Source: an uncultured Spirochaetaceae bacterium (GTDB lineage Bacteria > Spirochaetota > Spirochaetia > DSM-27196 > PWMO01). Taken from it: a stretch of DNA of 54,015 bases. Shown here one piece after another: positions 4,812 through 45,249 of the stretch; positions within the stretch are counted from its first letter, which is position 1, and each line of letters opens with the position of its first letter. Made by a program: the position numbers and the translations under genes. A model generated the notes under the pieces. The model was not told the origin of the DNA, searched no databases, and saw nothing but the letters and a program-made list of their open reading frames with translations. The stretch is from NCBI GenBank assembly GCA_964616245.1, contig CAZTRQ010000001.1, positions 1 to 54,015 on the forward strand, written 5' to 3'.

Positions 4812-6790
4812 GGTCCCACATACTGCAGCCGGTAAAGCTGAGCGTAGAGCCCCTCGTTTTTTAGAAGCTCCTGATGATTTCCTTCCTCGACGATCTGCCC
4901 CTGGGAGAGGACCACGATTCGGTCGGCGTGCTGGATAGTCGAGAGCCGGTGCGCGATTACGAGGGATGTCCTGTTCTCGAGAACCGCCTCCAGGGCCTCC
5001 TGGATTCGTTGCTCGGTTTCGGTGTCGACGCTCGACGTCGCCTCGTCGAGGATGATTATCGGTGGGTCGTGGGCGACGGCTCGGGCAAAGGAGAGGAGTT
5101 GTCGTTGTCCGACGGAGATGTTCTGGGCGCCCTCGGCTAGATGCGTCTCTAGACCCTCCGGGAGCTCTCGGACGAATCCATCGGCGTGGACGACCCGGAG
5201 TGCCCGCCAAATTTCCTCGTCTGAAAGCTCTTCTCCGAGGCGGATGTTCTCGCCGACGGTGCCCCGGAAGAGAAAAACATCCTGTTGGATCGGTTGAACG
5301 GCCCTCCGGAGATCCCCCAAGGGGAGAGTACGAATATCTTTGCCGTCGAGAAGAATGCGTCCCTCCTGAATGTCCCAGAATCGAGTCAGCAGGTTGGCAA
5401 TAGTGGTTTTTCCCGCCCCGGTGTAGCCGACGAGAGCGACCCTCTGTCCCGGTTGCACCGTTAAGCTCAGGTTGGTCAGAACCGGGTCGTCCTCCCGGTA
5501 CGAGAACGTTACCCCTTCGAAACGAACTTCCCCCCGGATCGGTTCCGTGAGCCTCTCGCCACCCGCATCCGGAATGCGATCCACCTCGTCGAGAAGGGCG
5601 AAGACCCGTTCGCTGCCGACCATAGCGCTCTGAAGAACGACAAAACGCTCCGAGATATCGAGCAACTGCCGGTAGAACTGGCGTATCAGGTTGAGGAAGG
5701 CGATCAGCACCCCGAGGGAAACGACCCCCCGGAGGACGAAGGCGCCTCCGTAGTAGATAACAAAAGCGATAGAGACGCTGCTCAAGAGGTCGATGAGGGG
5801 CCGAAAGGTGGCGAAGACGTACATTTCTCCGAGGTTCGCCTTCATCAACTCGTCGTTCTGCTCCTCGAACTCCCGGTTCGTCCGCTTCTCTTGAACGAAC
5901 ATCTGTACCACCGCTACCCCGGCGAGGTGTTCCGCCAGGAACGCGTTCAGACGGGAGACCCGGTGTCGGACGGCTCGGAAGGCGTCCCGGGCCCGCCGGC
6001 GGAAGACGATCGTTACCAAGAGAACCGGCGGAAGCGTAGCTGTCGCGAGGATACCGAGGCGGGGATTCATCAAGAAAAAAGTGATGATGACCCCGACCAT
6101 TATCGCGAAGTTCTTGAGGAGGTTTCCGATTACGTTGGTAAAGAGCTCGTTGATTGTCTCCACATCGTTCGTAGACCGGGTAACCAGCTTGCCCACGGGA
6201 TTCTGATTCAGGTAGGCCATCGACTGGTTAATCGTATGGGTAAACAGCTGCGTCCGGAGGTCCCGCATCAAGCGTTGTCCTAGATACGCCAAGAGATAGA
6301 CCTGGACGAAGGTAAAGACGAGAATTCCGAAGAGAAGCCCCAAGAAGCCGAGAGCGTTCCTGTTGATGCCTGCGATATCCTCTCGTCGGAGATCGCCCCT
6401 CTCCTCGGGCGAAAGCTCTTCGAATGCACTCTTTGATATCGCAAGGGTTTCGCTGCCCTGAGTAACGACGTAGTACCGGGTCTGATCTTCCGTCGGCCGG
6501 AATACGTTGCCTGCGGTCACCGTCGAGACGGCGCTCTCGAGGACGTAGATGCTCTCGTCCAGGCGCCGGGTAGCTATCTCCCGATTTTCGAGCTCTGCGG
6601 CCGTCTCCTCGTCGACCTCGACATACTCGGCAACGATGTGAAGGTCTACGGTCTGTTGAATAATGACCGGCAAGAGCAACTCGCAGACGGTGGCGCCGAT
6701 CAATCCGAGGATGGCGGCGAGAGTGGTAAGCTTGTACGGCGACAGGTAGCCGAGAAGGCGCCGCATAACCCGGGGGTTGTAGTACTTCAC
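4772..6790 (-). CDS. ABC exporter, fused permease/ATPase (type I exporter half-transporter, MdlB-like) with a ~90 aa insertion in the first external loop
   Basis: 672 aa. Walker A GYTGAGKTT, signature NISVGQRQLLSFAR, Walker B IIILDEATSSVD. GTG start overlaps the upstream stop (GTGA at 6787-6790). Confidence 0.9.
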   Translation of the reverse strand: MKYYNPRVMRRLLGYLSPYKLTTLAAILGLIGATVCELLLPVIIQQTVDLHIVAEYVEVDEETAAELENREIATRRLDESIYVLESAVSTVTAGNVFRPTEDQTRYYVVTQGSETLAISKSAFEELSPEERGDLRREDIAGINRNALGFLGLLFGILVFTFVQVYLLAYLGQRLMRDLRTQLFTHTINQSMAYLNQNPVGKLVTRSTNDVETINELFTNVIGNLLKNFAIMVGVIITFFLMNPRLGILATATLPPVLLVTIVFRRRARDAFRAVRHRVSRLNAFLAEHLAGVAVVQMFVQEKRTNREFEEQNDELMKANLGEMYVFATFRPLIDLLSSVSIAFVIYYGGAFVLRGVVSLGVLIAFLNLIRQFYRQLLDISERFVVLQSAMVGSERVFALLDEVDRIPDAGGERLTEPIRGEVRFEGVTFSYREDDPVLTNLSLTVQPGQRVALVGYTGAGKTTIANLLTRFWDIQEGRILLDGKDIRTLPLGDLRRAVQPIQQDVFLFRGTVGENIRLGEELSDEEIWRALRVVHADGFVRELPEGLETHLAEGAQNISVGQRQLLSFARAVAHDPPIIILDEATSSVDTETEQRIQEALEAVLENRTSLVIAHRLSTIQHADRIVVLSQGQIVEEGNHQELLKNEGLYAQLYRLQYVGPYSETFHRDDPLS

Positions 6791-8535
6791 GAGACCCGCC
6801 GTTCCATCGATTGGAGCGCCGCGATGCGTCGGTAGAGCCCCTCCGCCTTGGCGAGGGACTCGGGGGTCCCCTGTTGAATAACGTGGCCCTGATCGAAGAC
6901 GAGAATCTCGTCGGCGAATTGGAGGGTGGAGACCCGGTGGCTGACGACGATGTTCGTTTTGTCCTTCCGCTGTTCTTCAAGACGCCGGAGAATAATCTCT
7001 TCCGACTCGGTGTCCACCGCCGAAAGGGCGTCGTCGAAGAGGAGTATCTCCGGATCCGTCGCCAAGACCCGGGAGATATCGATGCGCTGCTTCTGCCCCC
7101 CCGAGAGGCTCACTCCCCGTTCCCCAACTTGCGTGTCGATGCCGTCGGGAAAGAGGTCCAAGTCCCGGGAGATCGTCGATATTTCCGCCATCTCCCGAAT
7201 ACGCTCCTCCGTCGCGTTCGGGGCGGCGTAGGCGATGTTATCGCTAATCGTCGCCGAGAAGAGAAAGGTCTCCTGTGCCACGATGCCGAAGACCGACCGG
7301 AGCTCCGCCAAGTCCAGCGTTCGGATATCCTTTCCGTTGAGAAACAGCGTTCCTTCCGGAGGGTCCAAGAGGCGCGGGAGGAGCCACATGAGGGTCGACT
7401 TACCGGATCCGGTGGTTCCGAGAATGCCCAGGCTGCTCCCGGGCTCCAGACGGAAGGAGACGTCGGCGAGGGCGTCTACCTCCATGCCGGGGTAGCGGTA
7501 GCTCAAGCTTCGGGCCTCGAGGGTGTGCGAGTGGGCCCGGCCGACGGCTACCGGCGGGTCGACTACCGGGGTAATCTCCGGCTCGACGTCGAGTATCTCG
7601 TTTATCCGCTTTAGGCTCGCGGCGCCCCGGGCGATCATGTTGACCGTAAACCCGACGCCGAGCATGGGCCAAATGAGCATCTCGAGGTAGCTCATCGTAG
7701 CGACGAACTCGCCGGGTGTAAGGGTGCCACGAATGACGGCCGCGCCACCGAAACGAAGCAGAAGCAGGGTTGTCAGTCCCGAAAGGAAGATAACCAGCGG
7801 GAAAAAGAGGCCCCAGAGGCGGACGTAGGCGAGGTTCCGGCGCTGGTACTCCCGGTTCGTCTCTCCGAATTTTTTAAGAAAGTACTGCTCTTTTACAAAG
7901 GCCTTTATGACCCGAACACCGGCGATCGCCTCCCTTGCTTCCTCGCTCAAATCGCTAAAACCCTCCTGCACCTGCTTGAAGAGCCGGGAGACGATGCGGC
8001 CTGCCGAAAGGATTAGCACCGTCACCAGAGGCAGGGGAAGAATGGTCAGGGCCGCGATCCGGGGGTTCTGCTGAAAGAGTATCCAGAGGATGGCGAGGGT
8101 CATAAAGACGCCGTCGATCGCCGCTACGAGGGCCATGCCCGAGGCCATTCGAATGGCCTGCATGTCGTTCGTGGCCCGGGCCATCAAATCGCCGGACTGC
8201 CGTTCCCGGTAAAAACTGCCCGACAGGGTCAAGAGATGGGAGAAGAGGCGCCGGCGAAGCTTGGCCTCTATTCGCCGGGAGGCGCCGTGGATAAAGTAGC
8301 GCCAGCCGAACCGGGCGATCGAAATGACAACTGCAACGCCGATCATCATGAGGAGCGGGGGAACCAGCTGTGAGAGGGTGAATCCCCTTTGGGTTACGAT
8401 GTCGATGCCCTGGCGGACAAACTGAGGGATAAGTATCTGCCCACCGCTGGTGACGACGAGACAGAGAACTCCGGCGAAATAATGTCCGCGGTACTGCTTG
8501 ACCAGGGGTAGAAGAGTCCGGTATTCCTTTAGCAT
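6787..8535 (-). CDS. ABC exporter, fused permease/ATPase (MdlA-like partner of a heterodimeric exporter)
   Basis: 582 aa. Walker A GTTGSGKST, signature LSGGQKQRIDISR, Walker B ILLFDDALSAVD. Six predicted TM helices at the N-terminus. Confidence 0.9.
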   Translation of the reverse strand: MLKEYRTLLPLVKQYRGHYFAGVLCLVVTSGGQILIPQFVRQGIDIVTQRGFTLSQLVPPLLMMIGVAVVISIARFGWRYFIHGASRRIEAKLRRRLFSHLLTLSGSFYRERQSGDLMARATNDMQAIRMASGMALVAAIDGVFMTLAILWILFQQNPRIAALTILPLPLVTVLILSAGRIVSRLFKQVQEGFSDLSEEAREAIAGVRVIKAFVKEQYFLKKFGETNREYQRRNLAYVRLWGLFFPLVIFLSGLTTLLLLRFGGAAVIRGTLTPGEFVATMSYLEMLIWPMLGVGFTVNMIARGAASLKRINEILDVEPEITPVVDPPVAVGRAHSHTLEARSLSYRYPGMEVDALADVSFRLEPGSSLGILGTTGSGKSTLMWLLPRLLDPPEGTLFLNGKDIRTLDLAELRSVFGIVAQETFLFSATISDNIAYAAPNATEERIREMAEISTISRDLDLFPDGIDTQVGERGVSLSGGQKQRIDISRVLATDPEILLFDDALSAVDTESEEIILRRLEEQRKDKTNIVVSHRVSTLQFADEILVFDQGHVIQQGTPESLAKAEGLYRRIAALQSMERRVS

Positions 8536-36090: not shown

Positions 36091-36738
36091 TTAGTCCGCA
36101 TGCCCATTACCCTGGATGCGCAGCTTTACCGAAAGGACGGCGTATCCGGAGGAGAGATCCTCCTTCTGCACGACGATGTGATCGGGAACCTTCAACTTAA
36201 CATTGGTAAAGTTCCAAATTGCTTCGACGCCCGCCTTGATCAGAAGGTCCGCCACAGCTTGGGCGTGGGAGGAGGGAACCGTCAGGATCGCGATCTTAAT
36301 CGATAGCTCCTGGATCTTCTCCGCCATTTGATGAAGCGTGAACACCGGTGTTTCGTGGATGCTCTTTCCGATCTTCTTCTTGTCCATGTCGAAGGCGGCG
36401 ACAATATTTAGACCCCGACGGCGGAACTCCCGGTAGCCGATCAGTGCGGTTCCAAGGCTGCCCGCCCCAACGATCGCCGCGCGGTGGTCTTTGTGCCACT
36501 CCAAGAACGAATAGATCGATTCAATAAGCTTGTCGACGGGAAAACCGATCCGAGGCTTTCCGACGATGCCGGTAACCGCGAGATCCTTCCGGACTTGGAT
36601 TGGCTCGAGCTCCAGCTCCTCGGCAATGGTGGTGCCGGAAATAAACTCTCTGCCGTCTCGTTGTGCGTTCTCTATGACATGCAGATAGGAAGGAAGCCGC
36701 TTGATAGTCGGCTGGCTTCCAAGCTTGGGTCTAGTCAT
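36091..36738 (-). CDS. rex: redox-sensing transcriptional repressor Rex
   Basis: TIKRLPSYLHVIE (winged-helix start), IVGAGSLGTAL Rossmann motif, and the typical C-terminal WNFTNVKLKVP. Confidence 0.9.
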   Translation of the reverse strand: MTRPKLGSQPTIKRLPSYLHVIENAQRDGREFISGTTIAEELELEPIQVRKDLAVTGIVGKPRIGFPVDKLIESIYSFLEWHKDHRAAIVGAGSLGTALIGYREFRRRGLNIVAAFDMDKKKIGKSIHETPVFTLHQMAEKIQELSIKIAILTVPSSHAQAVADLLIKAGVEAIWNFTNVKLKVPDHIVVQKEDLSSGYAVLSVKLRIQGNGHAD

Positions 36739-36869: not shown

Positions 36870-38555
36870 ATGGTGAAGCGGCATCTTTCGGTAGCGACGT
36901 TCGTCCTGGTTTTTTCGGCGTTTTTCCTCGGCGCCGCTGCCGAACTCTACCCCGATGTCCTCCGCTACGTTACCGGGGGGCTCTCACCGGGGCCTCCTGC
37001 ATCCACGGAGGAGCTTCTCTACCTGGTATCCGAGGACCGCTACCTCTACGCTTTCGCCTATAACGGCGAGCGCCTCTGGCGTCGGGATCTTCGGCGACGC
37101 CCCTTAGGGCCCGCGATACTCGGTCCCGACGGCACGATATACGTTTCCCGGGACGGTCGGGGAGTCTCTGCGTATAACCGGCGGGGTATCCGCCTGTGGG
37201 ACGCAGATATTCCGGATGTAACCCTTCCGCCGACGGTTACGCCCCGGGGTCTTTTGGTAGTTCCTCGAGCCGAGGGGACGATCTCCGTCTATTCACCTTC
37301 CGGCCGTCTCTTGAACTCCTTTAGGGGGCCGGGCACACTCGTTGCCGAACCGGTTCTCCTGTCCAACGGATACCTCCTCCTCCTCGGAGAGGACGGTGTC
37401 GTCTCGGCGGTGGACGGTGCGGGTAACCGCCTGTGGCAGCTATCGCTCCGCCGCGTTCCGGTGAGTGTCGCCGCCGGGGAAGGGGGATCGGTCGTCTTGG
37501 GTCTGGACGACGGACGGATCCTTATCCTCGGCCCGGAGGGCCGGGTGGCCGCCGAATGGCAGGCTACCGCCGGAGTCCGGCAGGTGCGCAGCGGCGGGAC
37601 GACGATTGCCGCGACCCTCGCCGACGGCAGGCTCTGGGTACTGGACCGGGAGGACGACCGGGTCTGGGTTGCAGGACCGCCGGGCGAATTCCTAACCGGG
37701 GTAACCCTCACAGAGGATTGGATCGCCTCGGTTTCCCAGGGTGGAAAACTCTACCTTTTCTCTCCGGAGGGAGCTCTTATTCGGGAATATCGCCTTCCGG
37801 AGAAGGCGGAGCTTAGCGAGCCGACGGTTCTCGCCGGGGGCGGAGTGGCTGCGGTGGGGTCGAACTGGGTCGTCTACCTCTTTTCGGCGCCGGAAGGTGG
37901 CTGCCGGGCACCCTGGGGCTGTTATCGAGGGGGGCAATCGCTCGCCGGTAGAAGCGCCTCCGAGGATGCCCGCGACTTGGTGCTGCCCCGGGGAACCGGG
38001 GGAGGGAGCCTCGAGCGCATCTATTTCGAGCGACTGCTCTCCTCGGCCGACCCCGAGGAGCGAGGCAAGGGGCTCGACGAGGTTCGCCGGAGACTCGAGG
38101 AGGGCCGACTGGGATCCCTTCGGGTCTACGTAGTGCCGTTGCTCCGGGGGATCGCGCTGCGAAGAAGGGCCCCCGGCTTGTCGCCGGAGGATCAGCGCCA
38201 AGCGGTCCGTCTTCTCGGCCAGATTGGCACCTATGAGGCCTCAGGGGCGCTCTCGGACCTCGCAGCCGGAGCCGGCCCCGATCTTCTCGAAACCGTGGCC
38301 GAGGCCATAGGAGGGCTTGGGAGCGATCCTAACCAGACGGCTGCCCGGGCACTTCTGCGAATTCTCCAACGGAGCTCGGACCTTCAGGTGGTGGAAGCGG
38401 TGGTGCGTGCTTCACAGCGACTCGTGGGTTACGCCGGAGGGCGCTACTCACCGGCCTTCGAAGGCATCGTCGGCTACGTGTCGGAGGGAGACTATCCTAT
38501 GGAACTCAAGAGGCGCGCCCTGGCTCTCGGCTCCCTTGAATCCTTCCGTCCCTGA
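36870..38555 (+). CDS. exported PQQ-like (BamB-type) beta-propeller fused to C-terminal HEAT/PBS-lyase-like repeats
   Basis: Signal-like N-terminus VATFVLVFSAFFLGAAA. Repeated ..YLYAF..G..LW / GTIYVS..G.VSAY blades. The C-terminal helical repeats include QRQAVRLLGQIGTYEASGALSDL and VAEAIGGLGSD. Confidence 0.75.
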   Translation: MVKRHLSVATFVLVFSAFFLGAAAELYPDVLRYVTGGLSPGPPASTEELLYLVSEDRYLYAFAYNGERLWRRDLRRRPLGPAILGPDGTIYVSRDGRGVSAYNRRGIRLWDADIPDVTLPPTVTPRGLLVVPRAEGTISVYSPSGRLLNSFRGPGTLVAEPVLLSNGYLLLLGEDGVVSAVDGAGNRLWQLSLRRVPVSVAAGEGGSVVLGLDDGRILILGPEGRVAAEWQATAGVRQVRSGGTTIAATLADGRLWVLDREDDRVWVAGPPGEFLTGVTLTEDWIASVSQGGKLYLFSPEGALIREYRLPEKAELSEPTVLAGGGVAAVGSNWVVYLFSAPEGGCRAPWGCYRGGQSLAGRSASEDARDLVLPRGTGGGSLERIYFERLLSSADPEERGKGLDEVRRRLEEGRLGSLRVYVVPLLRGIALRRRAPGLSPEDQRQAVRLLGQIGTYEASGALSDLAAGAGPDLLETVAEAIGGLGSDPNQTAARALLRILQRSSDLQVVEAVVRASQRLVGYAGGRYSPAFEGIVGYVSEGDYPMELKRRALALGSLESFRP

Positions 38556-38597: not shown

Positions 38598-40118
38598 ATG
38601 TCCATCAGACAATCAATCGAACGTGTTACTCTTCTCACCGCCCTCGTGGTGCTCTTGTGGCCCCTAGCGCTGTACGGCCAGACATCCCTCGATGTCGACC
38701 AGGAGGAGCTGGAGTCTCAGATAGACCGATCCGTCGAGTTTCAGAACTACACCGGTCCCTACGAGCGGATCGACCCGGCGGAAGAGATTTTCGGAATCGG
38801 GCGATCCCTCGCGGCGCAGATCGACGGCCCCGGTGGTCGCGGACGCATCGGAAACAGCTACCAGATTGTCCGAGCGGCGGACCCCGACGTCCTCGACGGT
38901 CTCGACGCCGACATTCTCTACATCCTTCCCCAGGGACGGGTGGACCACATCGACAATGTCCGGAGAATCCTCGCCGGCTATCTCGAGGCTGCCTACGACT
39001 ACAGCCGATCCGACGCCCTTCTTCTGGCGGAGCTCGTGACCATCTACAACGCGATATATCGGGGTAATCTCGACTTTTATCGGGGACGGTATAAGGACGT
39101 TGTCTTGCGCAACCTATCGGCCGGCGACGTTGGCATCTCGACGCTCTATTCCGATTGGCCCGGCGCAACGGAGTTGGTCACACCCCTCGACAGCGGTGCC
39201 GAGCCCGGGCGACTGCGGTCCATCGATCCTATAGAGCTTACCGATGAGGGCGTCGAGGATCGTCTGCGAGAACGCGAAGATCGAGGCATCGAGACCCGAG
39301 AAGATGCGGTCGACCTTATGGAGCGCGCTATCGACCAGGAAGAGGAAGGCATCGAAGAAGAGGAAGAGGCCATTGCCGAGGCGGAGGAGGAGCTTCGGCA
39401 AAGGGAGGAGGAGCTTCAGCAGCAGGAGGAGGAGGCGACAACCGACGAAGAGCGGCGGCAGGTCGAGGAAGAGGAGGCAGAGATTGAAGCGGAGCGGCAA
39501 GAGCTCTCGGAGCGCCGAGAAGCGGTGCAGGACCGGCGAGAAGACGTCGAAGAGCTAACCGAGGCGGTCCGGGAACGCCGGGAAAGCGTCGCCGAAGACC
39601 GACGCGAATTGCTCGGCGCCGAAGGCCGAATTGCCGAGCCAGGGCAGGTGCTCTTCTTACGGGTACGAGAACGGAGCGAGGGCCCCCTCGGGCAGCTTGT
39701 CTACGTCGACGCCGAGAGCGGCGCAGTCGAAGAAGAATCGCCGGTAGCCACCGTAACGAGTCGAAGCTACGAGCTCGTCTCCGGCGACCTTCTACTCGTC
39801 GGAGAGACCGAAGGGCAGTCACGCCTCTTACTCGTCGGTCCCGAGGACCTGGAGGTCCGTATCTCGGGGGAAGACGAGATCTTTCCTCAGAGCATCCTTC
39901 TATCGAGAGACGGGGGGCGGGAGATCTATGCGGTCGTTCGAGCCGGGGGAGGGTGGCATCTCGGGCGCTTTGACGATCGATTGGTCCTGAGGGAGCGGTC
40001 GACGACGGAGGTTACTCCGTATACCACCGTTCAGTTCGCCGAAAACCGCGTGTGGGTACAGCTTCTAGACGGTAGCATCGTCGGCCTCGACGCAGCGACC
40101 CTCGACCGGCTTCGATAG
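38598..40118 (+). CDS. P83/100-antigen-family protein with a central hyper-acidic coiled coil
   Basis: Signal peptide. VEFQNYTGPYERI..IFGIGRSLA, NVRRILAGYLEAAYDYSRSDALLLAELVTIYNAIYRGNLDFYRGRY and YSDWPGATELVTPL parallel my memory of the Borrelia P83/100 N-domain (EFVNYKGPY.., LRRILTGYL.., ITIYNAVYRGDLDYY). Confidence 0.8.
   Translation: MSIRQSIERVTLLTALVVLLWPLALYGQTSLDVDQEELESQIDRSVEFQNYTGPYERIDPAEEIFGIGRSLAAQIDGPGGRGRIGNSYQIVRAADPDVLDGLDADILYILPQGRVDHIDNVRRILAGYLEAAYDYSRSDALLLAELVTIYNAIYRGNLDFYRGRYKDVVLRNLSAGDVGISTLYSDWPGATELVTPLDSGAEPGRLRSIDPIELTDEGVEDRLREREDRGIETREDAVDLMERAIDQEEEGIEEEEEAIAEAEEELRQREEELQQQEEEATTDEERRQVEEEEAEIEAERQELSERREAVQDRREDVEELTEAVRERRESVAEDRRELLGAEGRIAEPGQVLFLRVRERSEGPLGQLVYVDAESGAVEEESPVATVTSRSYELVSGDLLLVGETEGQSRLLLVGPEDLEVRISGEDEIFPQSILLSRDGGREIYAVVRAGGGWHLGRFDDRLVLRERSTTEVTPYTTVQFAENRVWVQLLDGSIVGLDAATLDRLR
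39250..39620 (+). repeat. GAR-rich low-complexity coding tract (Glu/Arg coiled coil) inside the P83/100-like gene
   Basis: Runs of GAG/GAA/GAGGAGGAGCTTC-type units encode EEEGIEEEEEAIAEAEEELRQREEELQQQEEEATTDEERRQVEEEEAEIEAERQE.. Confidence 0.6.
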
Positions 40119-40143
40119 CCGCCTTAGTAGGGGGACCCTAAGC

Positions 40144-40602
40144 TTAGTTTTTGCCCCGGGGTTTTTTCCGTCCGAAAATTTTGCGAAGCAACCGCAGGAG
40201 GGCGTTCCAAACTCGCTTGAATATGCCGGGGTTCTTGAGTCGGTCGAGTCGAACGTAGGCGTCCGCCAACTCGTCGGTGCTCAGATTCTTCCGTTGCGTA
40301 TTCTCGTCGATTTCCACCTCCAAGAGAGCAGTCTCCTGCGTGGTATCGATTATCGACGCGGTAATGCGTTGCCAGCCGAGGCGTCTGGCGGCTTCCAGAC
40401 GGCGATGCCCCGCTACGAGCTCCCGGTCTCGGGTAATGACGATCGGATTTAACAGACCGTGGCGACGCAAGCTATCCATCAGCAGTGTCAGGTCGCCGAG
40501 GTTCTTTCGGATTCGTTTTCGGATTACCACGTCTCCTACCCCTATCTGGACGAGCTCTCTCCCCGAGGGTGAGACGTTGTTTCGTGCCGGTTGCTTCTTC
40601 AT
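40144..40602 (-). CDS. stand-alone ParB/Srx N-terminal (CTP-switch fold) domain protein with a basic amphipathic C-terminal helix
   Basis: 152 aa. LLNPIVITRDRELVAGHRRLEAARRLG (ParB box II GxRRxxAA) and EIDENTQRKNLSTDELADAY (box III ENxQR). No HTH or dimerisation domain. The tail is GIFKRVWNALLRLLRKIFGRKKPRGKN. Confidence 0.8.
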   Translation of the reverse strand: MKKQPARNNVSPSGRELVQIGVGDVVIRKRIRKNLGDLTLLMDSLRRHGLLNPIVITRDRELVAGHRRLEAARRLGWQRITASIIDTTQETALLEVEIDENTQRKNLSTDELADAYVRLDRLKNPGIFKRVWNALLRLLRKIFGRKKPRGKN

Positions 40603-40619
40603 ACTATCTCCGATGGCTC

Positions 40620-43154
40620 CTAGTCGAGAAGTGGGTTACCCTCTTCTGAGTTTCTGCTCTCCCCGCCGGAACCAAGGTCGGCGTCCAGATCCAGAGTAAA
40701 GTCGAGGTCGAAGGAGCCGCGGTCGAACTCCTCCCCGAATTCCGGAGAGCCGGTGCTCAGGGAGAAGTTCTGATTCGTAATGCTCCGCCGGAGCCGGTCG
40801 ACGAGAATAGGCTGTTGCTCCCGCTCGAAATCTTCGAGGCGGTCGAACTCCCGGGGTTGGGTTCCCGCCAGAAACACCTCTTCGATAATCCGACCGCTGT
40901 AGTTTTCCGTCGGCAGCAGACCCGATCGGGCGGTGACTCTCGCCCGGGTTATCCCGGAGGCCGGTTCCGGAAACTCCCGTCGATCGAGGCCGCGGTGGAT
41001 TTCCTTCATGTAGCGCGCCCATACGGGTCCCGCGGTAACCGCTCCGGTCTGGTTGGTTCCCAGCGAGTTTCCTCCACCGCGGTCAAAGCCGAACCAGACC
41101 GCCGTGGTGTAGTAGGGCGTAAAGCCCAGGGTCCAGGCGTCGGCCCAGTTTTGGGTCGTCCCCGTCTTTCCCGCGGTCGGTTGATCGAAGCCATCCACCA
41201 ACGATTCTGCCCATCTTAGAGTTCCGCTCTCGACGGTCGACTGGAGCATATCGGTCATGATGTAGGCGGTTTGGGGGCTGAGAACTTGGGCATCTTGCCC
41301 TTTTCGTTGCTGGGCAAGGCGGACTTCCTGCTCCGGCTCCATAATTATGCGTCCGTTGCGATCCTCGATATAGCGAATACCGATAGGGACAACCTCTCTC
41401 CCTTGATTGGCGATCGTCGAAAAGGCCTTCGCCATTTCGATGGGAGCAACCTCCACGATGCCGAGTCCCACGGGATACCGGCGCACCAGGTTGCGCCGCA
41501 CCATGTCCTCTTCGGGAATACCGAGAAGCCGACGAGCGGTCGTTAGGGCCTCGGTAAACCCAACCCGCTCGAGAATCCTCAAGGATGGCACGTTCATCGA
41601 GTGCGCCAAGGCGTACCGGGCGAGAACGGGCCCCTGCCATTCGCCCCGATAGTTCCGCGGGGTGTAGGGCGTGCCGTCATCGTTCCAGAAAACGACCGGA
41701 GAGTCGTAGATCATCGTCGCAGGCGTAATGACGCGACTCTCTATCGCGGCGGAGTAGTAGAGGGGCTTAAAGGAGGATCCCGGTTCGACCGCCGCATCGA
41801 CGGCGCGGTTAAACTGGTTCCGGGCTTCGAAACGGCTTCCACCGACCATCGCCAGGATACGCCCCGTGCCGTTCTCCAGCGTAATGAGTGCTCCCTCTAC
41901 GGTTGTCCTCTTCGCCTGGCGGTCGGCTGTTGCGTAGGAGGTCTTCACTGCGTCTCGGACTTCGCCCTCCGGGGGGCCAAAGAGCAGTGCGACGGCATCT
42001 AACACCGGATTGATTTCCTGCCGGTAATAGGCCTTCGCGTTCTGGAGCTGTTTTGCGTTTCCGACCCGGAACTCGCCGATATCGAAGGTCAGCGATAACA
42101 AGTCGATTATCGGGATCAGGTCGTTCCCTTCGATCGATCGTCGGGCAGAGTTGCTCCGGTAGATTCTATTCGCCGACTCGAGACCTTCTTGCATGTAACG
42201 GTCCGCCGCGGCCTGATAGTCCAGATTCAGAGTCGTATGGACGGTAAAGCCGTCGCGGTTTATATCGAGACTACCGAGGAGCAGCTCGTTCTCCAGTTGA
42301 TAGCGGACGTACTCACTAAAGTACGGTGCCCTGTCTTCTCGTTCGAAAAATGCCGTCGAGGTGCTTGTCCGGGTAAAATCGTAGTTGCTCCAGTACTCCT
42401 CGAAGGATTCGTCGACTCGCTGCCGGGTCGTGTAGCCCAACTCTACCATTTGGTCGAGAATCGTTCGCTGCATTCTCCGGGCCTCGTTGGGACGCCGAAT
42501 GGGCGAATAGAGGGAAGGGTTAGCCAACTGGATGACCAAGAGCGCAGATTCGGCGATGGTTATGTCTCGAGCCGAGTGCCCGAAGTAGTACTGGCTCGCC
42601 GCCTCGACACCGTAAGTCCCGTGGCCGAAGAACATCGTATTGAGGTATTTCTCGAGTATTTCGTACTTGGTCCAGTGCCGCTCTAGTTGGAGTGCCCACC
42701 AGAGCTCCCGGAGCTTTCGCGTTACCGAGAAGTCGCTCCGGTCGGCGTAGAGGTGCCCCGCGAGCTGTTGGGTGAGGGTGCTCCCCCCGCCGGAATAGGA
42801 CCCTCTAACCAGGTCGAAGGCAGCCTTGGACGTCCTGACGAAGTCGAATCCGTTATGCTCGAAAAACCGCCGGTCTTCTCGGGTAATCAGAGCGTAGACC
42901 AGGTGCTTCGGGAGCTCGTCGATCGTAACGAGCTCCCGGTTTTCGTCGGAGAAGAACTCGGTTATCAGGCGACCGTTTACGTCTAGAATCTGGGACGGGA
43001 GCGCGGCAACCTGAGTTCCGACGCTCTCGAGGTTTCCGACATTTCGTACGGAAGCTATGGCTAATCCGGTGGTAATCCCGACGGTCAATGCCACGGCCCC
43101 GGCAACGGCAAGGGCAACGCGGAGAACCACTCGTCGTTTTCTCTTTGGACTCAT
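40620..43154 (-). CDS. class A penicillin-binding protein (PBP1A type, glycosyltransferase plus transpeptidase)
   Basis: GT51 motifs EDRRFFEHNGFD and GGSTLTQQL. Transpeptidase motifs SSFKP, SMN and KTGTT. ATG 43154 (MSPKRKRR plus TM) is preferred over the track's TTG 43181, which lies inside a -35-like TTGACA. Confidence 0.95.
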   Translation of the reverse strand: MSPKRKRRVVLRVALAVAGAVALTVGITTGLAIASVRNVGNLESVGTQVAALPSQILDVNGRLITEFFSDENRELVTIDELPKHLVYALITREDRRFFEHNGFDFVRTSKAAFDLVRGSYSGGGSTLTQQLAGHLYADRSDFSVTRKLRELWWALQLERHWTKYEILEKYLNTMFFGHGTYGVEAASQYYFGHSARDITIAESALLVIQLANPSLYSPIRRPNEARRMQRTILDQMVELGYTTRQRVDESFEEYWSNYDFTRTSTSTAFFEREDRAPYFSEYVRYQLENELLLGSLDINRDGFTVHTTLNLDYQAAADRYMQEGLESANRIYRSNSARRSIEGNDLIPIIDLLSLTFDIGEFRVGNAKQLQNAKAYYRQEINPVLDAVALLFGPPEGEVRDAVKTSYATADRQAKRTTVEGALITLENGTGRILAMVGGSRFEARNQFNRAVDAAVEPGSSFKPLYYSAAIESRVITPATMIYDSPVVFWNDDGTPYTPRNYRGEWQGPVLARYALAHSMNVPSLRILERVGFTEALTTARRLLGIPEEDMVRRNLVRRYPVGLGIVEVAPIEMAKAFSTIANQGREVVPIGIRYIEDRNGRIIMEPEQEVRLAQQRKGQDAQVLSPQTAYIMTDMLQSTVESGTLRWAESLVDGFDQPTAGKTGTTQNWADAWTLGFTPYYTTAVWFGFDRGGGNSLGTNQTGAVTAGPVWARYMKEIHRGLDRREFPEPASGITRARVTARSGLLPTENYSGRIIEEVFLAGTQPREFDRLEDFEREQQPILVDRLRRSITNQNFSLSTGSPEFGEEFDRGSFDLDFTLDLDADLGSGGESRNSEEGNPLLD

Positions 43155-43161
43155 CAAGGGT

Positions 43162-43191
43162 AGGGTAGGGAGAGCTGTCAAGCTTTGTCAA
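43162..43191 (-). promoter_or_regulatory. possible PBP1A promoter: tandem TTGACA boxes (43191-43186, 43181-43176) and TACCCT -10 (43167-43162)
   Basis: First TTGACA, then N18, then TACCCT. The -10 ends 7 nt before ATG 43154. The -10 match is weak. Confidence 0.3.
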
Positions 43192-43196
43192 GCGAA

Positions 43197-43229
43197 GGAA
43201 AAAAAGAGGGCCGGCCCGAAGGCCGGCCC
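43197..43229 (-). terminator. intrinsic terminator: GGGCCGGCC-UUCG-GGCCGGCCC stem-loop followed by UCUUUUUUU (minus strand)
   Basis: 9-bp all-GC stem with a UUCG tetraloop at 43208-43229 and an A7 run at 43199-43205 on the plus strand. It lies downstream of the last gene of the long minus-strand operon. Confidence 0.8.
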
Positions 43230-43333
43230 AGATGATCGGTTATCGGCTAATATAGTAAACTGGGAGGGGAACTATATTAAGTAACCGACATTCTATTTAT
43301 CGTCTCACGACGACACTTGCTTAACAAAGATCT

Positions 43334-44329
43334 TTACTCTTCTCTTATCATTATATCAAGAGACAGAACAATTTCGTAGTCTTTCTTTGGCTCGACTTGA
43401 AATCTTCGGCTAATCGAGAAATCCCCGAGCTCGAAGAGGATGGTGTGATCCCCGGGGTCCAGCGAGAGGGTCTCGTTCCGATTCCATGGAACGCCGTTCA
43501 CGAAGAGCTCTGCGTTCCGAGGGGCGTCGACAGTTATCTCCGACCTCGGCCGCTCGAGCTCGATGGCTATCTCTGCGACGGTACCCCGCTCGACCCCGAA
43601 GGTAACGGTCTCGTTTTCGAAGACCTGGGACTCGAGGGAAAGGCGATGGAGCCCGGTTGCGAGAAGAATCTCTTCTCCGGTGTACTCCACTTCTTCCCCG
43701 TCGATCGTAAGAGAAAAATTGCGAAAGGCTCCTTGGGCCTCTCGGATCTCGGCGCCTTCGGGGGTCAGGACCGACAGCCGAAGAGCTCCCCGGTCCAACA
43801 GGAGTGGTCGGGCTATCACCGCGAAACGCCCTTCGGCGGCTGCGGGGGAAATTCCCTTCATAACCGGGATAATCGAAAAGACCACGGGGTAGGCTTCGGT
43901 TCCCAGGGATTGCGGCGCTACGCGAGCGTCCACGGTGGAACGAAGCTGGTGCTCCGACACCGCAGGCATGCTGTAAAAGAACCGAGCGCCGGGGGGCAGG
44001 GGCTCCAGGGCCACTCGGCTACCCTGGAAGGTCATCACCGCGAGCTCCGGCTCCGGCGAAACGTCGCGTAGAATGTAGAGCGCGAAGCTGCCGGGGAATT
44101 CCTGAGCCGAACCCGGTACCTGCACTTCTAACTGGACTCCTCGGAGGAATCGAACGTCGCCCTCGAGCTTCAGCGCTCCGAGGTCGTCCATTCCCAGCTC
44201 GAAGCGGCGCTGCGAACCCGCGGCAATCGGAAGGGTCTCGACCTGTTCAACGCTACCCCGAAGGGTCTCACTGAATCCGGCCTGGATCGAAGAAAGGAGA
44301 AATAGGGTAAGGAGAGCGAACGACTTCAT
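43334..44329 (-). CDS. hypothetical exported protein with a PEGA-like C-terminal beta domain
   Basis: Signal peptide MKSFALLTLFLLSSIQAG. C-terminal ITVDAPRNAELFVNGVPWNRNETLSLDPGDHTILF resembles PEGA. ATGA overlap with the upstream M23 gene. Confidence 0.7.
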   Translation of the reverse strand: MKSFALLTLFLLSSIQAGFSETLRGSVEQVETLPIAAGSQRRFELGMDDLGALKLEGDVRFLRGVQLEVQVPGSAQEFPGSFALYILRDVSPEPELAVMTFQGSRVALEPLPPGARFFYSMPAVSEHQLRSTVDARVAPQSLGTEAYPVVFSIIPVMKGISPAAAEGRFAVIARPLLLDRGALRLSVLTPEGAEIREAQGAFRNFSLTIDGEEVEYTGEEILLATGLHRLSLESQVFENETVTFGVERGTVAEIAIELERPRSEITVDAPRNAELFVNGVPWNRNETLSLDPGDHTILFELGDFSISRRFQVEPKKDYEIVLSLDIMIREE

Positions 44330-45249
44330 CGATTCAGGCCCGGTAGATGCAAGAGCGGATCCCGCGGTATCCCGCCCTGTCGAACTTCAAAGTGAAGATG
44401 AGAACCCGTCGAAAGACCGGTATTCCCTACGGTGCCAATAATACTACCCGAAGACAGTCTATCATTCAACCGTACGTCGACACGGTCGAGATGGCCGTAG
44501 AATGTTTGGTAACCTCCGTCGTGCCCCAGGAGGACAAAGTTACCCATTACGGGGTCTACCCCGGTTTCCTCGACGACGCCGGACCGGGCAGCGAGCACCT
44601 CAGTTCCGATAGGGGCCGCGAAATCGACGCCCGCATGTACCGTCATGAGCCCCGTAAAGGGACTCCGCCGGGGACCGAAGTAGGAGGAGATCCGCACATT
44701 CTTTACCGGGCGACGGAAGAGAATCCCGAGAAAGGAGAGTCTCTCGACCCGATCGAAGTCGGACCCCGGGTGGAACTCGTAGCTAACCGCACCGTCGGGG
44801 CGGTGCACCCGTACTTCCACCGACTCGGGGTCGCCGGCGGTCCTCAGCTCTCTCATCAGTCGCTCGAGGTCCGTCTGTGGCTCTCGGGGAACGAATATCC
44901 CGGGAATGCTCGGAATCAAGAGCTCCTCCACCCTTCCCGAGAGCTCCGCCGAGGGAAGGCGGTTCAAGCTGGCGAGGGCGCCGTAGGAAATCGAAAAACG
45001 GGACGCTACCTGGATAAGGCTCTCTTCCGGTTGGGGATGATAGGTATAGATTACCAGGGGCGGGAGAGGACCGCCGCTGCGCTCCGCCGCGTAGAAGCGT
45101 CGCAGAGATTCTTGGTGCTGTCGAAAAAGGACATCCTGCGGCGAGGTTCGCCCGATAAGAGGGTAGTCGGCGTGCAGGTAAACCGGGATAAGAAAGAACA
45201 GAGCCAGAACGATGGGCCTCAGAGCCCGCCGTTGACTAGCTTGGGTCAT
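44326..45249 (-). CDS. LysM-domain M23/LytM peptidase with canonical active site
   Basis: ATG 45249 (MTQASQRR plus signal/TM). LysM-like SLIQVASRFSISYGALASLNRL. HAGVDF (HxxxD) and GSHLHFEV (HxH). Confidence 0.85.
   Translation of the reverse strand: MTQASQRRALRPIVLALFFLIPVYLHADYPLIGRTSPQDVLFRQHQESLRRFYAAERSGGPLPPLVIYTYHPQPEESLIQVASRFSISYGALASLNRLPSAELSGRVEELLIPSIPGIFVPREPQTDLERLMRELRTAGDPESVEVRVHRPDGAVSYEFHPGSDFDRVERLSFLGILFRRPVKNVRISSYFGPRRSPFTGLMTVHAGVDFAAPIGTEVLAARSGVVEETGVDPVMGNFVLLGHDGGYQTFYGHLDRVDVRLNDRLSSGSIIGTVGNTGLSTGSHLHFEVRQGGIPRDPLLHLPGLNR

Follow-up and report, generated by a model that had tools for sequence, protein, structure and literature searches.

What does a ParB-type nucleotide-binding domain do when it comes without the DNA-binding half of ParB and is encoded directly behind a cell-wall synthase? 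The question is raised by a complete open reading frame (ORF) of 152 residues at 40144..40602 on the minus strand of a 54,015-nucleotide stretch of DNA from an uncultured Spirochaetaceae bacterium (contig CAZTRQ010000001.1 of assembly GCA_964616245.1, positions 1 to 54,015; hereafter the window). A preliminary description of this DNA, made from the letters alone, had read the ORF as a truncated ParB/Srx-fold protein with a membrane-targeting-like tail, placed 17 nt downstream of the gene for the class A penicillin-binding protein (PBP) PBP1A on the same strand, with no terminator in between. The placement is confirmed, and the three peptide strings on which that description leaned (LVAGHRRLEAARRLG, DENTQRKNL and IFKRVWNALLRLLRKIFGRKKPRGKN) are all found in the translation. 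Here we show that the ORF product is a genuine ParB N-terminal (CTPase-fold) domain, and we weigh a reading in which a nucleotide-driven dimerization switch would be combined with membrane binding through a C-terminal amphipathic helix and with a link to PBP1A. The parts of the protein lie as follows, with invariance judged in a close-family alignment (A1) and a divergent-family alignment (A2):

40144..40602, minus strand: the ParB-fold ORF, 152 residues, complete; ParB N-domain only, plus a C-terminal amphipathic helix (ORF list, Pfam).
40552..40602, minus strand: N-terminal extension, residues 1-17, present in the closest relatives only and predicted to be disordered.
40234..40551, minus strand: ParB/Srx (CTPase-fold) domain, residues 18-123 (Pfam, NCBIfam, PDB, AlphaFold2, Foldseek).
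40507..40515, minus strand: R30-I31-R32, in place of the Gln-Pro-Arg of ParB; both Arg are invariant in A1 and A2 (alignment to Helicobacter pylori ParB).
40399..40410, minus strand: box II, or P-motif, G65-H66-R67-R68; GHRR for GERR, with codons GGG CAT CGC CGT on the reverse complement.
40291..40305, minus strand: box III, E100-N101-T-Q-R104, aligned with ENLQR of Noc and ParB; E100, N101 and R104 are invariant.
40225..40233, minus strand: N124-P125-G126 hinge; P125 is invariant and N124 nearly so (A1), and the helices of the AlphaFold2 model break at 123/125.
40165..40224, minus strand: cationic amphipathic helix, residues 127-146, a candidate membrane-targeting sequence.

The identity of the domain is supported by sequence and fold alike. 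The protein matches the Pfam family ParB_N (PF02195) over residues 36-103 with 37.0 bits (E 3.6e-9), above the gathering score of 26.3, and no other Pfam family matches any part of its 152 residues. The NCBIfam models for ParB (TIGR00180) and Noc (TIGR04285) match residues 33-119 with 52.6 and 55.8 bits, under their cut-offs of 58.45 and 315, since each profile is matched in its N-domain part alone (positions 24-115 of 186 in TIGR00180). Sequence matches in the PDB are to Noc and ParB N-domains, with E-values down to 8e-10; the nearest solved structures are those of Noc, H. pylori ParB, Thermus Spo0J, Bacillus subtilis ParB, Myxococcus xanthus ParB and Caulobacter ParB, and all ParB/Noc structure alignments end at residues 119-123. 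An AlphaFold2 (AF2) model built with 24 family members as input has a mean predicted local distance difference test score (pLDDT) of 79, with the core at 80-96, and contains helices at 109-123, the last of the domain, and 125-143. In line with the structure-prediction check proposed in the preliminary description, Foldseek superposes this model on Noc (7nfu), the pNOB8 ParB N-domain, PadC, ParB bound to cytidine triphosphate (CTP) or diphosphate (CDP) and KorB with probability 1.0 and E-values of 1e-7 to 1e-5, with sulfiredoxin and SerK trailing far behind. Of the solved structures, those most like this domain are the N-domains with which chromosomal ParB and Noc bind CTP. The domain is cut off directly after the helix that follows box III: both the helix-turn-helix (HTH) and the C-terminal dimerization domain are absent, and the protein stops at residue 152, as had been proposed. 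Sequence, fold and the GxxR P-motif place it in the ParB/Srx superfamily, and it falls outside canonical ParB and canonical Noc. At the other end, most family members have their first residue where residue 18 stands in A1; the extension seen here is polar and disordered, with pLDDT below 50 at residues 1-8, and no LG[KR]GL-like ParA-binding motif can be read in residues 1-20.

Does this lone domain keep a working nucleotide pocket? In Caulobacter ParB, the substitutions R60A, S74A, G79S, R103A, R104A, N136A and R139A each lose CTP binding, Q58A and E135A bind CTP and do not hydrolyze it, and E102A binds and dimerizes without hydrolysis (Jalal et al., PMC8367383). When these residues are placed on the ORF by motif and spacing via HMMER alignments, the seven binding residues become R32, S44, G49, R67, R68, N101 and R104, all invariant in A1 and A2, and the base-contacting loop GLLNP resembles the GLLQS and GLQEP loops of CTP binders. 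Of the three hydrolysis residues, only one is kept (E135, here E100); Q58 is replaced by the invariant R30 and E102 by H66. Box II as such is strict in its G, R and R, and position 66 within it is not: among 223 sequences it is H in 136, Y in 27, E in 19, F in 15, Q in 12, G in 6 and another residue in 8, so that H, Y, E, F, Q, G, R, A and M all occur across the family. The box II His stressed in the preliminary description is present in this protein (GHRR) and is not a family constant. Apparently, the nucleotide pocket looks intact and ParB-like, and on the evidence of these residues ParB-type hydrolysis is unlikely; with Arg for the catalytic Gln and a variable position for the His, the protein may therefore be a binder rather than a cycling switch.

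Beyond the hinge, the domain gives way to the segment on which a membrane role would depend. On the Fauchere-Pliska scale, an 18-residue window of the tail reaches a hydrophobic moment of 0.78, the maximum of the whole protein and a value equalled in 2 of 5000 shuffles of the tail, at a net charge of +6; I127, F128, V131, W132, L135, L136, L138, L139, I142 and F143 make up the hydrophobic face. In the 223 short family members, the best 14-residue window at the C-terminus has a median moment of 0.79 (above 0.6 in 91%) and a median charge of +4, and across these proteins the tail sequence drifts while its amphipathic character is kept. AF2 models the helix at 125-143 with moderate confidence (pLDDT ~74-77). 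The basic amphipathic tail and its conservation, both anticipated in the preliminary description, are thus found, and a helix that is amphipathic, cationic, located at the extreme C-terminus and conserved in character corresponds to the C-terminal membrane-targeting class. Five relatives of 185-205 residues (P0127, P0129, P0144, P0151 and P0191) go one step further: they contain the domain and the start of the amphipathic segment and then a two-helix hydrophobic hairpin with basic flanks (Kyte-Doolittle 19-residue mean 2.3-2.9), which is predicted to be transmembrane and to leave the ParB domain on the cytoplasmic side. Five predicted integral-membrane relatives, together with the amphipathic tails of the others, suggest that the family most probably works at the membrane.

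This short tailed form is widespread in one phylum. A word-indexed search returned 261 relatives; among the 120 listed, all have 111-153 residues, and the named ones are metagenome-assembled genomes (MAGs) of Spirochaetota. An exhaustive profile search gave ~100 clusters at 50% identity, short and matched through the tail, before longer proteins appear. In a species-level genome collection, relatives are present in 229 genomes, nearly all Spirochaetota, including Marispirochaeta, Salinispira, Sediminispirochaeta, Alkalispirochaeta, Spirochaeta and one Treponema MAG, and when divergent members served as seeds for a second search, Brevinematales and a few MAGs labelled deltaproteobacterial joined them. 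Compared with the closest relative (92% identical), the ratio of nonsynonymous to synonymous substitution rates (dN/dS) comes to 0.07 over the gene as a whole and to 0.05 over the tail, and it is 0.04-0.07 overall. The nearest relatives in sequence outside the family are uncharacterized ParB-like proteins of ~240-440 residues, the best being phrog_12047 (88 bits, E 1.7e-24, residues 20-112), which share the xRIRKDxGD motif, GxRR and ExxEN. However, the four that were read have mostly GERR and no amphipathic tail, and their HTH-like stretch and Glu/Lys-rich coiled-coil-like regions begin where the family switches to its tail. The family is truncated in the evolutionary sense, anciently and productively. 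An origin from a phage, plasmid or defence system was considered and rejected: the neighbours are housekeeping and envelope genes, consistent with the lack of plasmid or phage context in the preliminary description, and PADLOC gives a generic ParB-domain match inside a methyltransferase model and nothing else. Where a match covers the greater part of the domain, identity in the viral contigs kept does not exceed 46%, the two viral loci read (L100 and L115) encode long ParB-like forms of 305 and 372 residues, and the short tailed form is absent from the viral contigs examined.

The second question is whether the gene belongs with PBP1A. The elements that bear on it are, in the direction of transcription:

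43176..43229, minus strand: terminator-like hairpin followed by two TTGACA hexamers, directly upstream of PBP1A (scan and inspection).
40620..43181, minus strand: PBP1A, a class A PBP and the first gene of the pair (Transgly 5.7e-57, Transpeptidase 7.5e-27).
40603..40619, minus strand: 17-nt spacer between PBP1A and the ParB-fold ORF, GAGCCATCGGAGATAGT on the coding strand.
40608..40611, minus strand: Shine-Dalgarno sequence GGAG of the ParB-fold ORF, 5 nt 5' of its ATG, read from the sequence.
40119..40143, no strand: 25-nt gap to the convergent P83/100-like gene, with a short palindrome at 40128..40140; end of the transcription unit.

The terminator scan resolves the hairpin at 43229..43208 as nine G-C pairs followed by the T-run TCTTTTTTTC, and it reports no terminator-like site on the minus strand between PBP1A and the ParB-fold ORF. 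The TTGACA hexamers lie downstream of the hairpin at 43191..43186 and 43181..43176; they are not reported by the consensus promoter scan, and their reading as promoter elements comes from inspection. Because the hairpin and the hexamers stand upstream of PBP1A and the 17-nt spacer holds no terminator, the two genes look like a dedicated two-gene transcription unit. The mechanical TTG start of PBP1A at 43181 falls inside the second hexamer, and the true start is probably the ATG at 43154. This ATG is without an obvious Shine-Dalgarno sequence, and the PBP1A mRNA may be leaderless or nearly so. A Rfam scan of 39000..44500 gave a sole match, to the small RNA SorY at 43201..43290 (minus strand), between the PEGA-like gene and PBP1A, which overlaps the terminator hairpin and, with 28.6 bits against a gathering score of 111, was taken as chance.

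Linkage was then compared across genomes. Of the 80 genome loci that were kept, four have too little upstream sequence, leaving 76 assessable; in 73 of these PBP1A is the immediate upstream gene, on the same strand, with PBP1A identities of 46-91% and, in most of the 73, a spacer of -8 to ~+35 nt. In six lineages a GcvH-like gene (~131 residues) stands between the two, and the pair persists. These three-gene loci, whose inserted gene is of the glycine-cleavage H or lipoyl-carrier type, are L016, L036, L049, L061, L076, L088/L089 and probably L047. One further lineage has wholly different downstream neighbours (RsmJ and ClpB) and keeps the order M23 peptidase, PEGA-like gene, PBP1A, ParB-fold gene. 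A fusion of PBP1A with the ParB domain had been flagged in L027 and L028 by a frame open through PBP1A; in L028 the sequence reads as a stop codon followed by a 12-nt spacer, and there is no fusion there. The proposed pairing thus holds in 73 of 76 assessable genomes and is tight in Spirochaetales-type genomes; it is lineage-specific, being absent in the seven contexts considered below.

The surroundings of the pair are themselves recurrent. The convergent gene (38598..40118, plus strand) is a homologue of the Borrelia P83/100 family (Pfam E 1.7e-84) with a long Glu/Arg-rich middle region, and most related loci likewise have a P83-like sequence downstream, in the opposite orientation. Further along, a 561-residue ORF (36870..38555, plus strand) and a 215-residue ORF (36091..36738, minus strand) are conserved neighbours in related loci; their domain names are those of same-position counterparts in L001 and L003, not of the window ORFs, and comprise PQQ-like beta-propeller matches for the former and Rex-type Put_DNA-bind_N plus CoA_binding for the latter. 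Upstream of PBP1A, a 331-residue protein (43334..44329, minus strand) gives a weak PEGA-domain match (E 0.0058), and in related loci an M23 peptidase gene precedes this PEGA-like gene, which places PBP1A within a conserved envelope-gene neighbourhood. Two loci (L003, 6377-7951, and L005, 6397-7968) carry, between the ParB-fold gene and P83, a single gene with PyrB-type (OTCace) and PyrI domains that seems to encode the catalytic and regulatory chains of aspartate carbamoyltransferase as one fused protein; that an enzyme of the pyrimidine (CTP) pathway adjoins a putative CTP binder in L003 and L005 may be a coincidence.

How does such a protein compare with characterized systems? The best match by both structure and sequence is Noc of B. 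subtilis and Geobacillus (7nfu, 7ol9), which shares the ParB-type CTP-binding N-domain and binds the membrane through a short amphipathic helix under CTP control (PMC8429893). However, the Noc helix is N-terminal and that of the window protein C-terminal; Noc keeps its HTH and C-terminal dimerization domain and loads on Noc-binding-site (NBS) DNA, whereas the window protein has no DNA-binding part; and Noc has GERR and hydrolyzes CTP, where the window protein has GHRR. With ParB/Spo0J (TIGR00180) the window protein shares the N-domain with its C-motif loop, the GxRR box II, the ENxQR box III and the seven CTP-binding residues, but it lacks the ParA-binding motif, the HTH, the C-terminal domain, a parA neighbour and parS, and the catalytic Gln and Glu are changed to Arg and to His or a variable residue, respectively. 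MinD and FtsA, to which the preliminary description had likened the tail, carry a short amphipathic helix at the extreme C-terminus, and in MinD nucleotide-dependent dimerization doubles the helices and turns on membrane binding. Their folds, a P-loop ATPase and an actin, are unrelated to that of the window protein, whose tail is longer (~18-20 residues) and more cationic than theirs. PadC of M. xanthus is a larger adaptor that connects ParA to bactofilin filaments and has neither a membrane helix nor a cell-wall gene context. It has in common with the window protein a ParB/Srx domain without a DNA-binding domain (6ryk, Foldseek E 4e-7), although sequence identity is ~21-22%, and it binds CTP with no noticeable CTPase activity (quoted in PMC8367383). 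A recent survey describes the ParB fold as an independent unit of ~100 residues whose short forms occur mainly in phages and some archaea, bacterial single-domain matches mostly having at least 300 residues (Kaljevic et al., 10.1101/2025.10.10.680097). In contrast, the present family is bacterial and chromosomal, and the survey makes no mention of it, of spirochaetes, of PBPs or of amphipathic tails; in the literature, we found no description of this family in connection with spirochaetes, PBPs or membrane targeting.

Taken together, these features suggest a scheme with the logic of MinD and the chemistry of Noc. The domain would bind a nucleoside triphosphate (NTP), most likely CTP, and binding would drive face-to-face dimerization of two N-domains, as in ParB, Noc and PadC; the dimer would then show two amphipathic helices and so hold more avidly to the inner membrane on its cytoplasmic side. 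As two of the three ParB hydrolysis residues are replaced, turnover is probably slow, if it takes place at all, and occupancy may track the nucleotide level or a partner protein; instead of cycling fast as a switch, the protein may serve as an adaptor or as a sensor of the nucleotide level. Within Spirochaetales-type genomes the protein would act with or on PBP1A and help to position or control class A peptidoglycan synthesis at the membrane, a role that the operon alone suggests. Nucleotide identity, dimerization, membrane binding and the PBP1A link are what we infer here, and the package as a whole, in which the ORF is a working gene, passed on vertically, whose family of ~125-150 residues is centred on Spirochaetota, strikes us as evenly poised between right and wrong, with more weight on its membrane part and less on its PBP1A part. 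Its fullest form, a minimal CTP-gated (or other NTP-gated) membrane switch with paired helices that positions or regulates PBP1A and couples wall growth to the cytoplasmic nucleotide pool, is a tentative proposal that we regard as rather doubtful.

Several observations weigh against this scheme. Nucleotide specificity of the ParB fold is not predictable from sequence, so CTP is simply the most likely ligand, and among 28 ParB-fold proteins that were purified, 17 failed to bind any NTP in vitro (10.1101/2025.10.10.680097). With an invariant Arg for the catalytic Gln and a variable residue for the catalytic Glu, a hydrolysis-driven cycle appears doubtful. The tail's hydrophobic positions 128, 131, 135, 138 and 142 also match a short heptad (3-4) spacing, as would suit protein-protein packing. 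The cytoplasmic N-terminus of PBP1A comprises just ~8-10 residues (MSPKRKRR...) and is strongly basic, like the tail; it is therefore a poor docking site, and direct contact in the cytoplasm is not obvious. Part of the PBP1A linkage may be plain synteny, as the whole region of M23 peptidase, PEGA-like gene, PBP1A, ParB-fold gene and P83 is syntenic in the clade. Finally, outside the PBP1A-linked genomes, seven contexts lack a neighbouring PBP. They are three MAGs that carry the label Thermodesulfobacteriota or deltaproteobacterial, a locus of Brevinematales type that has flaA in its vicinity, a Spirochaetales-labelled MAG in which the gene follows citrate synthase, a contig on which its neighbours are csgG and leuS, and the single transmembrane variant examined. 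The neighbours in these contexts are OmpA genes and an unknown 660-residue protein; citrate synthase; CsgG, FMN_bind and LeuS; PilB/PilC-like genes; a nicotinamide mononucleotide (NMN) transporter; and two peptidase-like genes with a radical-SAM-like gene. The transmembrane variant (L087, 3755-4357), the sole context of its kind examined, is without a PBP and stands among the NMN transporter, an aminotransferase, LspA and IleS. In L070, a 503-residue ORF of unknown function (5356-6867) overlaps and follows the ParB-fold gene, and in L094 a 660-residue ORF with no Pfam match (4914-6896) comes closely after it; either might be an alternative partner.

The explanation that best survives beside the PBP1A-linked switch accepts a membrane-associated ParB-fold protein and takes the adjacency to PBP1A as inherited synteny, the protein having another membrane-proximal role, for instance as a nucleotide sensor or adaptor. 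It accounts readily for the joint conservation of the five-gene region, for the seven contexts without a PBP and for a PBP1A cytoplasmic tail of so few residues. It sits less well with the very small spacers, or outright overlaps, that most of the 73 linked genomes show, with a pair that seems to be enclosed between a terminator and promoter-like hexamers of its own and the end of a convergent gene, and with an adjacency that outlasts both changes of downstream genes and insertion of the GcvH-like gene. We consider this explanation a real possibility, though short of probable.

A further alternative concerns the tail, which could be an oligomerization or partner-binding helix, or a basic arm for nucleic acids, on a protein that is soluble. 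The 3-4 heptad spacing described above fits such a helix, Arg/Lys-rich helices are able to bind DNA or RNA, the nearest long relatives continue with an HTH-like stretch and then Glu/Lys-rich coiled-coil-like regions, and the AF2 helix is modelled with the moderate confidence given above. Against this, five relatives carry a bona fide transmembrane hairpin after the same helix; aromatic residues (W132, F128 and F143) combined with a net charge of +4 to +6 typically mark helices that bind lipid at the interface; and two and a half heptads are too few for a stable coiled coil. A soluble protein is unlikely on balance, and the candidate membrane-targeting helix is retained in our reading.

It is very unlikely that the protein is a ParB/Srx-superfamily enzyme, such as a nuclease, a SerK-like kinase or a sulfiredoxin-like repair enzyme, rather than a binding switch. 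The idea draws on the PHROG label of the nearest relatives ('ParB-like partition nuclease'), on weak matches to SerK (E 0.0068) and sulfiredoxin (E 0.31 by sequence and 2e-4 by fold), and on the His66 that occupies the position of the catalytic Cys in the sulfiredoxin GCHR motif. However, the spread of residues found at this position, described above for box II, rules out a catalytic role for it across the family; the window protein has neither a Cys, at the sulfiredoxin position or anywhere else, nor a substrate-binding domain; and its similarity to the CTP-binding ParB and Noc domains far exceeds that to sulfiredoxin or SerK.

More improbable still is a decoy or tether, which would heterodimerize through its N-domain with the full-length ParB of the host and attach the origin complex to the membrane. 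The domain is ~30-35% identical to chromosomal ParB and Noc N-domains, including the dimerization-linked box III, and membrane tethering of origins is a known theme (10.64898/2026.03.06.710092). Such identity is low for a specific heterodimer, though, and neither partner is encoded nearby: there is no second ParB_N ORF across the whole 54-kb window, and the annotation of the syntenic locus L001 shows no ParA-type gene to a distance of ~6 kb (the remaining window has had no parA scan). The consistent operon partner is, instead, a cell-wall enzyme. Last, the possibility raised in the preliminary description of a pseudogene, the decaying remnant of a longer ParB or nuclease gene, recalls that the four longer relatives read run into an HTH-like stretch exactly where the ORF turns to its tail, but is practically eliminated by presence in 229 species genomes, ~100 clusters at 50% identity with the same short length, purifying selection that extends to the tail (dN/dS 0.04-0.07), a conserved hinge and tail and a Shine-Dalgarno sequence of its own.

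To our knowledge, CTP-dependent switches are a young field in which the characterized bacterial examples all act on DNA, except PadC. The preliminary description had seen in this gene a new use of the ParB fold; a CTP-controlled membrane switch is already known from Noc (PMC8429893), and a DNA-free and hydrolysis-free form of the fold from PadC, while the minimal architecture, the C-terminal position of the helix and PBP1A as operon partner are new. If a membrane anchor replaces the DNA-binding half while the CTP pocket is kept, the family would be the simplest known switch of this kind and a clean system for the fold alone. At ~130 residues and with cultivable carriers such as Marispirochaeta, its members would be easy to express and suited to assays in routine use in the field: the DRaCALA ligand assay, cysteine crosslinking and liposome pelleting. 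The finding, which rests at present on sequence analysis, is a lead both for the CTP-switch field and for spirochaete cell-wall biology: the two-gene unit with PBP1A, present in ~70 species-level genomes, offers a way into the organization of class A peptidoglycan synthesis in spirochaetes, of which little is known.

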